Virus record (IMG/VR): IMGVR_UViG_2529292910_000010
Coordinates: 1 to 41,736 of that record
Strand: one strand, 5' to 3'
Origin: a virus
Lineage: Duplodnaviria > Heunggongvirae > Uroviricota > Caudoviricetes
DNA: 41,736 nucleotides
Below the pieces are notes generated by a model that had not been told where the DNA came from, searched no databases, and saw nothing but the letters and a program-made list of their open reading frames with translations. Both the position numbers and the translations under genes were made by a program. This document shows, piece by piece, positions 29,509-31,467 of this stretch. How positions within the stretch are numbered: the stretch's first letter is position 1; the number at the start of each line of letters is the position of its first letter.

Positions 29509-30158
29509 GCCGCCATCTCCCTGACCAGTTTTTCCGCCTGCTGGCGAACCTGCGCCAGAAATGCCTCACCACATGCCTCAAGTTCATCGCGCCCGATGTA
29601 GCTGATTGCCGCTCCCTTCCAGGTCTTGTCGAAAACAGCAATAGCACCAGCGAAGAAAGCACCTGTTGGCACCTGCTTTTCGTCTTTCGGGATAAACCAG
29701 GCTGGCAGTTCAAAACCAATACGCCCGCGAATAAAAGCAATATGATCTGCATCTTCCGGCCACCACACTTCGCTGGTGGCCGCTTTGATCAGGAAAACAT
29801 AGCGCCCGCCTTTATCACGCATGGCACTGGCATGCTTCATGATGTAACGCATGCCGGTGATGTATTGTCCCTCATGCTGACTGGCGCGGCTGTACGGGGG
29901 ATTACCAAAGGCAGCACCTTTAAGCTCCGCAAGACGTTCTGACCAGTCATGTGCCAGCGCGTTGTCTTCCGCCGTGTAATACGCGGCACATTTGGCGTTA
30001 TCACCGTCAGTAAACAGATCCAGAACAAACGGGCCAAACAGGGTGTTAATTCCCCAGAAAATGTTGTCCGGCGTGCGCCACTGATCGCCCACTTCCTTCA
30101 GTTCATGGGCTGGTTTGTTCCGTAGTTCCACCAGCGCCTGGCAATATTTATTACTCAT
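29505..30158 (-). CDS. phage DNA N6-adenine methyltransferase (Dam-like, orphan)
   Basis: start placed at MSNKYCQ...; motif AAFGNPPYS (DPPY-type); no adjacent restriction enzyme. Confidence 0.85.
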   Translation of the reverse strand: MSNKYCQALVELRNKPAHELKEVGDQWRTPDNIFWGINTLFGPFVLDLFTDGDNAKCAAYYTAEDNALAHDWSERLAELKGAAFGNPPYSRASQHEGQYITGMRYIMKHASAMRDKGGRYVFLIKAATSEVWWPEDADHIAFIRGRIGFELPAWFIPKDEKQVPTGAFFAGAIAVFDKTWKGAAISYIGRDELEACGEAFLAQVRQQAEKLVREMAA

Positions 30159-30652
30159 TAAGCCCCCACGTAATTCCCTGACAGATACCACTCATCACCC
30201 GCTACAGCGCGCTTTCTGCTTTTCCGTAAGCACCGCTCACGACGCGCCAGAAAATTGTTTCGTTCTGGCTGGGAGTGGCTTTCACGGAATGCCGCCATCC
30301 ACACGGTTGCAGCACGACGGTATAAGCCCCTGGACTCCAGTTCTTCCGCCTGGCGGGTCAGGCACAAAATCACCCGGGGATCGTTAGTGCCGACATAGAA
30401 ATTGCGCACAGGTATGGTTTCAAGAACAGGTTGCAGTTTCTCCTCCTGCGATATCTCAGCCTGGTGTGGGAAATGTCTGCGTGTTTTCCCTTCACAACAG
30501 TGAGCCACACGGCCACTCTGACGTAACTTGCTTGCTGACTGCAGAACGCACTGTCGTGAGTAACCAGCAAAAGCATCCGCAATGTCACCTGAAGTACACC
30601 CCGGATGGGCTTCAATGAATTTCTGTACATCGTTCATCAGACTCATGATCAC
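30158..30652 (-). CDS. PerC-family-like regulator (C-terminal PerC-like motif)
   Basis: 164 aa; AEELESRGLYRRAATVWMAAF resembles the PerC/Pch signature (GLWRRAA) as recalled. Confidence 0.45.
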   Translation of the reverse strand: MIMSLMNDVQKFIEAHPGCTSGDIADAFAGYSRQCVLQSASKLRQSGRVAHCCEGKTRRHFPHQAEISQEEKLQPVLETIPVRNFYVGTNDPRVILCLTRQAEELESRGLYRRAATVWMAAFRESHSQPERNNFLARRERCLRKSRKRAVAGDEWYLSGNYVGA

Positions 30653-31467
30653 CCCCTGAATCCTGTCGGGATCTGGCTGTAGTCCACGTTGTCGTAACTG
30701 GCTTTGAAGTACGGGTCCTCGCGTCTGGCTGCAGATACCGCAGGAACTTCCCAGGATTCTTCGAAATGACGATCCGGACCAAAGAACGTGACAGCCTGTT
30801 TCACAAATTGTGTGCCGCTGTTACCCATCGCAGATACCCAGCCCGCGTAGCGTTTCACACCTTCCAGCATGGTTTCGGGTTTTACCCCCTCATTCAAACG
30901 GGCTTTCCAGGCTTTGAAGGCTGCAGATTTTGAATTGCCACCAGCACGTTTGGGGTATGCCAGCCATGCCTGCTCAAACTCCGGAGAGTATTCCGGTCGG
31001 TTTGAACGAACTCGCACAGACTCATCAGCAGATGCACCAACAGCTATTGGTTCATTGACTGGTTCTTTGACTGGTTCAAAAGAGTGACTGGTTCTGGGTG
31101 AATCTCCTGCACCACCCCCTGGTGCAACTCCTGCACTACCTGGTGAATTTGCTGCACCAGATAGTGAATTATTTGCACTACCCCCTAGTGAATCTCCTGC
31201 ACCATCAAGATGAAGGAGATAGATATTACTTGAGTTACCTTTTTCACCTTTCCGGGTGACTTTTTTTACCAGCCCGGACTCACAAAGGGCCGCAATATGA
31301 TTCATCACAGAACGTTTGCTAATCTCGCACTGGTCAGCAATATGCTGGTAGCTGGGCCAGCACTCACCCTGATCGCTGGCATTATCAGCCAGCTTGATCA
31401 GAACCAGTTTTCGCAATGGATTACCCACTCGAATTTTCATCGCTTTAACCATCAGCTCCATACTCAT
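30649..31467 (-). CDS. replication initiator (lambda O-like, winged-helix N-terminus with internal ori iterons)
   Basis: start MSMELMVKAMKIRVGNPLRKLVLIKLADNASDQG...; Gly/Ser/Ala linker encoded by the iteron array; ATGA overlap with the upstream ORF. Confidence 0.7.
   Translation of the reverse strand: MSMELMVKAMKIRVGNPLRKLVLIKLADNASDQGECWPSYQHIADQCEISKRSVMNHIAALCESGLVKKVTRKGEKGNSSNIYLLHLDGAGDSLGGSANNSLSGAANSPGSAGVAPGGGAGDSPRTSHSFEPVKEPVNEPIAVGASADESVRVRSNRPEYSPEFEQAWLAYPKRAGGNSKSAAFKAWKARLNEGVKPETMLEGVKRYAGWVSAMGNSGTQFVKQAVTFFGPDRHFEESWEVPAVSAARREDPYFKASYDNVDYSQIPTGFRG
31097..31206. repeat. origin-like iteron array (5 imperfect ~20-bp direct repeats) followed by an AT-rich segment
   Basis: ggtgaatctcctgcaccacc / ggtgcaactcctgcactacc / ggtgaatttgctgcaccag / agtgaattatttgcactacc / agtgaatctcctgcaccatc at 21-24-bp spacing. 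Confidence 0.7.

Follow-up and report, generated by a model that had tools for sequence, protein, structure and literature searches.

A PerC-family protein encoded at the helicase-loader position of an SfV/mEp460-type (Eru6) phage replication module

In the replication module of phage lambda the gene of the winged-helix initiator O contains four 19 bp iterons, repeated about 20 bp apart, which encode a flexible linker; an AT-richer stretch flanks them and the gene of the partner P follows immediately downstream in the same operon. The C-terminal part of O determines the specificity for P. A module with the same overall layout is found in a lambdoid prophage, IMG/VR record IMGVR_UViG_2529292910_000010, the whole 41,736-nucleotide stretch of which is referred to here as the window. 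In the P position, directly after an initiator gene with its own iterons, the window encodes a protein of the YfdN family that combines a winged helix–turn–helix with a PerC domain (wHTH-PerC; in what follows, the PerC-like protein). The differences from lambda are that the array consists of five 15 bp cores, that the accompanying AT-rich stretch is less pronounced and flanks the array on the opposite side, that the initiator is matched by HTH_36 and not by Phage_rep_O and that the partner has no similarity to P. Judged from sequence, the locus has an O–P-like layout, yet neither of its two proteins is a member of the O or P families.

Replication regions of this kind have been typed by the two genes next to cI; the Eru6 type, represented by Stx2a_WGPS2 (AP012537), is characterized by Rha/Ash and HTH_36 proteins, and nothing was reported to be known about the proteins that replicate Eru phages (BMC Genomics 2022, PMC8951638). 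The window carries the Phage_pRha plus Phage_ASH and HTH_36 genes upstream of cI and is 92.8% identical to AP012537 over 3.4 kb, but the PerC-family gene and the iterons go unmentioned in the published description. The 3.4 kb region is 93–97% identical in mEp460, Lys8385Vzw, Stx2a_WGPS2, Stx2a_1447, many Stx2c phages, cdtI and 1720a-02, all of which apart from the Stx2c group are noted as isolated or inducible phages. The annotation of mEp460 cites SfV homologues gene by gene. Among lambdoid replication modules this is a variant that is known and widespread but mechanistically unexplored; it belongs to the SfV/mEp460 (‘Eru6’) type.

The sequence-only reading of this DNA had left open whether the module is incomplete or relies on host loading factors. 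Phage mEp460 is viable and has the same module at 93% identity, and its whole genome (44.5 kb) contains no annotated helicase, loader or primase and, outside the module, no other annotated replication gene. The module is therefore complete, which refutes the first of these possibilities. The second stands: no loader, helicase or primase was found among those open reading frames (ORFs) of the window that were scanned, and with a PerC-family protein in the slot and no recognizable loader, replication must draw on the host, for DnaB helicase and primase at the least.

The PerC-like protein is 162 residues long from its ATG start; RefSeq models use the GTG that overlaps the initiator TGA, giving 164 residues. 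A resemblance of its C-terminus to PerC had been noticed from the sequence, with a hidden Markov model search proposed as the check, and that search bears the resemblance out: Pfam PerC (PF06069) matches residues 100–153 at profile positions 5–58 of 90, with an E value of 4.5e-9 and 36.9 bits against a cut-off of 22.6. In an AlphaFold2 (AF2) model of mean predicted local distance difference test score (pLDDT) 77.8, the protein is predicted to fold into a winged helix and a three-helix bundle, not into an AAA+ ATPase. The family has invariant positions in both domains and a C-terminal L-x-G-x-Y/F-x-G motif. It is a small family of 101 clusters at 50% identity (E <= 1e-3), about 30 of them full length.

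PerC of enteropathogenic Escherichia coli (EPEC) and Pch of enterohaemorrhagic E. coli (EHEC) are single-domain proteins of about 90–100 residues, plasmid-encoded or carried as prophage cargo. The C-terminal three-helix domain of the window protein shares their PF06069 family, with a match above the gathering score, but it lacks their single-domain architecture: its 162 residues include an additional N-terminal winged helix, a linker and a C-terminal motif, and its gene is tied to initiator genes. We know of no activity of the window protein related to the enterocyte effacement locus (LEE). Near-identical copies are named yfdN, ‘PerC family transcriptional regulator’, in RefSeq, and proteins about 88% identical are named ‘CPS-53 (KpLE1) prophage protein’; the K-12 YfdN of the cryptic prophage CPS-53/KpLE1 belongs to the same family, although the K-12 copy lies in a decayed prophage. 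The papers found to mention yfdN are screens, gene lists or unrelated work, and our literature searches on PerC and replication, on yfdN and on ‘initiator-solo’ modules found no functional study. The ANR (AraC negative regulator, Aar) proteins are small and three-helical like the PerC domain (PMC4038620), but are stand-alone anti-activators of 39–80 residues. The window protein matches the ANR family NF033650 weakly (residues 98–145, E 4.5e-5, 23.2 bits against a cut-off of 32) and is not a member.

The statement that the P-position gene encodes no recognizable helicase loader also proved sound. The PerC-like protein matched neither lambda P, DnaC/IstB nor any other loader model in Pfam, NCBIfam or PDB sequence searches, the PDB searches with this protein and with the initiator giving chance matches only. 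The lambda P family PF06992 was absent from its Pfam and PHROG matches and the DnaC/IstB AAA+ family from its Pfam and NCBIfam matches. Profile–profile comparison of the PerC-like family with hhalign gave probabilities below 1% throughout: 0.2% against the P-like alignment, 0.3% against DnaC/IstB and less than 1% against the two partner families of unknown function described below.

The genomic attachment of the gene is close to invariant. Of 114 loci with a wHTH-PerC gene, two lie at contig edges; among the 112 informative loci 110 have the end of an initiator-type gene no more than a few bases from the PerC-like start, the exceptions being one frameshifted initiator and one recT gene. Seven architectures, each combining one of five N-domains with one of three C-domains (C-1, C-2 or Phg_2220_C), are represented among the linked initiators, and the linkage holds for PerC-like subfamilies at 52, 30, 26 and 24% identity. 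On its other side the PerC-like gene has variable neighbours (Dam, an MT-A70 methylase, a protein with a LexA DNA-binding domain or a small ORF), and for this reason we rejected a coupling to Dam rather than to the initiator. The initiator stop and the PerC-like start abut or overlap, the ribosome-binding site lies within the last initiator codons (TTC AGG GGG in the window) and a consensus scan between the two genes found no promoter and no terminator. Of 5426 complete E. coli genomes, 2725 contain DNA that matches the pair. This linkage pattern is unlike that of cargo genes. Such near-constant attachment to initiator genes implies that the PerC-like protein probably belongs to the replication machinery rather than to virulence cargo, so that the regulatory-cargo role offered by the sequence-only reading is not favoured, while a regulatory side-activity is possible.

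What occupies the same position elsewhere is informative. In a survey of 80 species genomes the partners of the initiator family were DnaC-like proteins (often together with a DnaB-like helicase), members of the lambda P family and two families of unknown function. In prophages of Klebsiella, Citrobacter and Raoultella, initiators 67–75% identical to that of the window precede DnaC/IstB-like and DnaB-like helicase genes; behind more distant ones stand lambda P family proteins (PF06992, 6e-37; phrog_109 ‘P-like helicase loader’, 3e-38) or DnaC-like proteins. These sister modules share with the window an initiator at 40–75% identity, the iteron-encoded linker, the C-1 or C-2 domain and the partner position. 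They differ in having recognizable loaders or helicases (DnaC plus DnaB in Klebsiella and Citrobacter, lambda-P-like proteins in Shewanella and others) and other initiator tails, where the window has a wHTH-PerC protein. The P position is thus literally the loader slot in sister modules. A Leclercia locus has an initiator followed by a wHTH-PerC protein 28% identical to that of the window; this Leclercia protein also matches PF06069 (1.9e-8).

The two further partner families follow homologous initiators in Pseudomonas (loci L018–L039) and Aeromonas (L068–L079). One is of about 265 residues (phrog_6028, unknown function) and the other of about 170 residues with no PHROG match; each goes with its own type of initiator tail, ...RNEYL and ...DDSTPL. 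They may be additional unrecognized loader-slot proteins.

The end of the initiator mostly changes with the partner. Conservation of the body extends to about residue 245, after which the final stretch of some 25 residues switches. The PerC-linked tail, T1, is the 24-residue REDPYFKASYDNVDYSQIPxGFRG, with the tail motif EDPYFKASYDNVDY; copies of the same body linked to DnaC/DnaB have tails ending ...SGFSEQDYGQSDCNW (Klebsiella DnaC type) or similar. The PerC-type tail is common to four otherwise different initiator bodies that precede a PerC-like gene, and bodies with the unrelated C-2 domain end in it; where a DnaC-like or P-like gene follows, the tail of a C-2 body is a different one. As the PerC-like proteins diverge, so do the tails that accompany them, KEDPLFKSSYVGTDYSQ..GFR and SDPVPVTRESYDNVDYALPENAGFRQ, and a 30%-identical protein goes with ...SYDNVDY...GFRQ. 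By analogy, this tracking of tail and partner suggests a recognition resembling that between lambda O and P. The codons for IPxGFRG differ synonymously, a sign that the protein sequence is under selection in addition to the ribosome-binding site.

One idea about the tail was weakened and one given up. ‘GFRG’ as a docking motif was downgraded, being partly ribosome-binding site and also preceding a DnaC-like gene, and a natural initiator::PerC fusion (P0146), considered as a proxy for docking, is actually a frameshift that destroys the tail. We also note that at loci L026 (4501–5454) and L054 (4501–5418) the initiators combine the N-domain of the window with a C-2 domain, end in ...DNAIPAGFRG and ...DNTVPPGFRG, respectively, and are followed by a 246-residue DnaC-like protein. 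The IPxGFRG ending is thus common to DnaC-linked and PerC-linked tails, for which the ribosome-binding site is the only explanation so far. In L026 a double winged-helix protein (phrog_630) comes after the DnaC-like gene; hhalign gave 0.7% for the PerC-like family against it.

The initiator, for which 5604 homologues were found, has the lambda-type arrangement of an N-terminal winged helix and iterons in its own gene that encode a flexible linker. Its ATG start at 31467 fits homologues beginning MSMELMV. Earlier it had been called O-like, and this description holds for the architecture and for the PHROG names (phrog_270 ‘replication initiation protein’, 5e-89, with relatives named ‘O-like’) but not for Pfam membership: the best match is HTH_36 and Phage_rep_O is missing from the matches at E <= 0.1, so that by sequence the protein would not be counted in the lambda O family. 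A DnaD_N match falls below its Pfam cut-off. The C-domain matches phrog_1701 and phrog_9327, with labels that include ‘DnaD-like helicase loader’ and ‘primosomal protein’. In the AF2 model the winged helix has a pLDDT of 74–87, the linker and tail are below 40 and the C-domain reaches only 50–70; with a shallow alignment, the last of these is too poor for a fold search.

The iteron array and gene coordinates given by the sequence-only reading were confirmed. The iterons start at 31098, 31122, 31143, 31164 and 31188 on the minus strand, with spacings of 24, 21, 21 and 24 bp. Their pattern has no copy elsewhere in the window against 0.48 expected from shuffles, a comparison that is partly circular as the pattern was derived from the array copies; Tandem Repeats Finder detects the array independently (period 24, score 70). 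Initiator homologues of 250, 272 and 294 residues differ by blocks of 22 residues, or 66 nt, equal to three repeats, which is the behaviour expected of an iteron array. Variants P0129 and P0150 (alignment A2) gain or lose exactly 22 residues, corresponding to about two, five or eight repeats; such three-iteron steps indicate unequal crossing-over within the origin. The iterons are presumed to be binding sites of the initiator and the region to be the origin. The comparison with the lambda origin made in the sequence-only reading had been right as to the winged-helix initiator with iterons in its own gene, while the AT-rich flank is real but modest: its richest 40-mer, at 70% AT, is above the 95th percentile of the window (67.5%) and below the 99th (75%). 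A search for DnaA boxes near the origin found none. The peptide encoded by a second repeat on the other side of the iterons is also kept in DnaC-linked homologues, and this repeat therefore travels with the initiator body rather than the PerC-like gene. It may provide the origin with further binding sites, as a second set.

We propose, with a probability of roughly 0.4, that the PerC-like protein assists in the capture of host DnaB as a non-AAA+ partner of the initiator. The initiator would bind the five in-gene iterons through its N-terminal winged helix and open the neighbouring DNA. The phage would supply no helicase, no AAA+ loader and no lambda-P-type loader; instead, the PerC-like protein, as a dedicated partner, would dock with one of its domains on the initiator, whose disordered C-terminal tail is the most likely site, and its other domain would contact the host helicase or the helicase–loader complex. 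In this way it might help to capture DnaB, either free or from DnaB–DnaC, for loading at the origin and would be a functional analogue of lambda P without homology to it. Contacts with the initiator tail or with DnaB, and a requirement for the protein in replication, are what we infer from the equivalence of the slot, the linkage, the translational coupling, the tracking of the tail and the sufficiency of the module in mEp460. The predicted build, in which a disordered linker connects two small domains as in an adaptor, also counts in favour of this proposal. In an expression library of E. coli UTI89, fragment 4,997,073–4,999,597 caused filamentation when expressed (PMC6206680). In that genome (NC_007946, locus L169) the fragment takes in the 74-residue ORF, the genes for the initiator and the PerC-like ‘yfdN2’ and, in part, the genes that flank them, in the gene order of the window. 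The effect was not narrowed to one gene and is compatible, as circumstantial evidence, with a loader function.

Several observations weigh against this assignment. The PerC-like protein has no sequence or fold similarity to known loaders, and the support for a loader or adaptor role comes entirely from gene context. Near-identical E. coli prophages account for many of the 112 loci, which makes the number of independent events far smaller, and a borderline family member (L280; 27% identity, E 7e-4) comes after recT rather than an initiator. The final FRG codons of the tail are also constrained as a ribosome-binding site. Tails of a second type, T2 (RDV...P.D..IPxGFRG), precede a PerC-like gene in L275–L277 and a DnaC-like gene in L026 and L054; the tail therefore tracks the partner mostly, not strictly, and a shared tail can come from one recombination event that later spread. 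The initiator alone could recruit host DnaB–DnaC, relatives of its C-domain being labelled ‘DnaD-like helicase loader’ in PHROG. Lastly, both the name of the family and those relatives that have been tested (PerC, Pch and EcCIMP1_025) suggest transcriptional effects: PerC activates LEE1, and EcCIMP1_025, from a phage-inducible chromosomal island (PICI), represses it (PMC11773190).

These last two points lead to the foremost competing explanation, which we consider somewhat unlikely: that the initiator recruits DnaB–DnaC by itself through its DnaD-like C-domain, that the PerC-like protein regulates transcription, or counters silencing, of phage or host genes and that its gene is merely the first of a nin-like region, hitch-hiking with the initiator 3′ end. 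Besides the effects of PerC and EcCIMP1_025 on LEE1, membership of PF06069, the basic character of a protein with a winged helix and the weak ANR similarity speak for this explanation, as do the PHROG labels of the initiator C-domains and the T2 tails with their two kinds of partner. ANR proteins target AraC-family regulators, and such a regulator (HTH_AraC/HTH_18) is encoded in the same prophage (23696–24409, minus strand). There is, however, no consistent link between the AraC-like and PerC-like genes: mEp460 carries the latter and has no annotated AraC-like gene. Nor would a cargo gene be expected to keep its place at the stop codon of initiators of seven architectures, with PerC-like identities as low as 24%, as the other neighbour changes, and the consensus scan gave the PerC-like gene neither promoter nor terminator of its own. 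Most E. coli lack the LEE island, the target of PerC/Pch regulation, as presumably do most of the complete E. coli genomes, about half of the total, in which the DNA of the pair is found. The PerC-like genes of two PICIs were without effect on LEE1 fusions, according to work cited in PMC11773190.

An improbable further alternative is that the PerC-like protein is coupled to replication as a modulator and not as a loader, binding the initiator or a host replication protein; possible tasks are timing, copy control, the blocking of host initiation to free DnaB or protection of the origin complex. The linkage, coupling and tail evidence apply to a modulator just as they do to the proposed loader partner, with nothing here separating the two, and the filamentation caused by the UTI89 fragment would fit interference with host replication or division (PMC6206680), although it was not narrowed to the PerC-like gene. 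On the other hand, the slot in sister modules holds true loaders and not modulators. That the module is a decayed, non-functional remnant that lost its loader gene, as the lack of a recognizable loader among the window ORFs scanned might suggest, is in practice refuted by mEp460 and can be set aside given the identical gene order in viable or inducible phages, the intact and conserved ORFs with residues invariant across the family and the tight, scarless initiator/PerC-like junction.

A broader version of the loader-partner proposal, which we put forward only tentatively and hold to be somewhat unlikely, is that wHTH-PerC (YfdN) proteins form a previously unrecognized non-AAA+ class of phage helicase-recruitment factors that dock on a short linear motif in the initiator tail and deliver host DnaB, the PerC/Pch/ANR virulence regulators being single-domain offshoots of an accessory protein of phage replication. 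If true, this would be a third solution to helicase recruitment in enterobacterial phages beside the lambda-P-type and DnaC-type loaders. The annotation of the family as a transcription regulator is probably too narrow; if replication is where the PerC-like protein acts, the label ‘PerC family transcriptional regulator’ misleads in thousands of annotations and the origin of the PerC/Pch/ANR regulators needs rethinking. If it is a regulator only, the loading of host DnaB by these initiators takes place with no loader from the phage. The module occurs also in Shiga-toxin, cdt and serotype-converting phages and, according to the Eru papers, phage replication efficiency matters for EHEC virulence. 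A fixed partner in the loader slot is a concrete candidate for how Eru-type phages obtain a helicase, and a possible target.

The module is part of the early-right operon of the prophage, which extends along the minus strand from about 33.6 kb down to 26.8 kb (Table 1).

Table 1. Features of the replication module and its surroundings. Positions are those of the window unless given as residues.
Feature	Position	Strand	Remarks
cI-like repressor	33735–34427		Divergent from Cro-like gene
Cro-like HTH protein	33377–33637	minus	First in early-right gene order
CII/CP76 protein	32827–33384	minus	
Ash+Rha protein, 381-residue ORF	31685–32830	minus	Pfam Phage_pRha + Phage_ASH
74-residue ORF	31464–31688	minus	phrog_1153, 8e-45, function unknown
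Replication initiator gene, 272 residues	30649–31467	minus	
Initiator winged helix	residues 1–88		N-terminal; Pfam HTH_36 (PF13730), E 1.8e-11
Initiator Gly/Ser/Ala linker	about residues 91–150		Disordered, iteron-encoded
Initiator helical C-domain ‘C-1’	about residues 151–245		
Initiator C-terminal tail REDPYFKASYDNVDYSQIPTGFRG	residues 249–272; coding DNA 30652–30723	minus	
AT-rich flank, 70% AT	31204–31246		Abuts array, 5′ side in gene orientation; candidate unwinding region
Iteron array, five 15 bp cores GTGCARVWRWTKCAC, GTG...CAC ends	31098–31202	minus	Presumed origin
Second repeat, GAACCAGTCA x3	31056–31094	minus	Other side of iterons; encodes EPVKEPVNEP
wHTH-PerC gene (YfdN family), 162/164 residues	30158–30646 (ATG) or to 30652 (GTG)	minus	
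PerC-like protein, winged helix	residues 1–60		AF2 model
PerC-like protein, acidic disordered linker	residues 63–83		AF2 model
PerC-like protein, basic three-helix PerC domain	residues 90–145		pI 11.3; AF2 model
Dam methyltransferase	29505–30191	minus	Downstream of PerC-like gene
LexA-DNA-binding-domain-only protein, RusA, KilA-N, DUF968	after Dam in gene order	minus	

An ATGA overlap couples the 74-residue ORF translationally to the initiator gene. A Pfam search with it gave no match, it is not kept upstream of initiator homologues in other modules, and it may or may not be part of the replication module. Within the Ash/Rha ORF the family matches start at residue 61 or beyond, and a 59-residue ORF in another frame of this N-terminal extension (32502–32681, minus strand) is a DUF4222 protein (PF13973, E 9e-14). 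The true Rha/Ash start is probably internal and DUF4222 probably a separate gene, one that lacks annotation in mEp460 and UTI89. DUF4222-type ORFs between CII and the initiator are also present in loci L275, L276, L279 and L281.

After Dam, the 108-residue protein at 29182–29508 (minus strand) matches the LexA DNA-binding domain (E 2.9e-19) with no match to the peptidase domain. It recurs 3′ of Dam or of the PerC-like gene in many such modules and could act as a competitor of LexA at SOS boxes. Elsewhere in the prophage, a 653-residue protein (20968–22929, minus strand) has DUF1737, SASA (sialate O-acetylesterase) and DUF6645 domains, and we take it to resemble the NanS-p-type esterases of Stx-type prophages.

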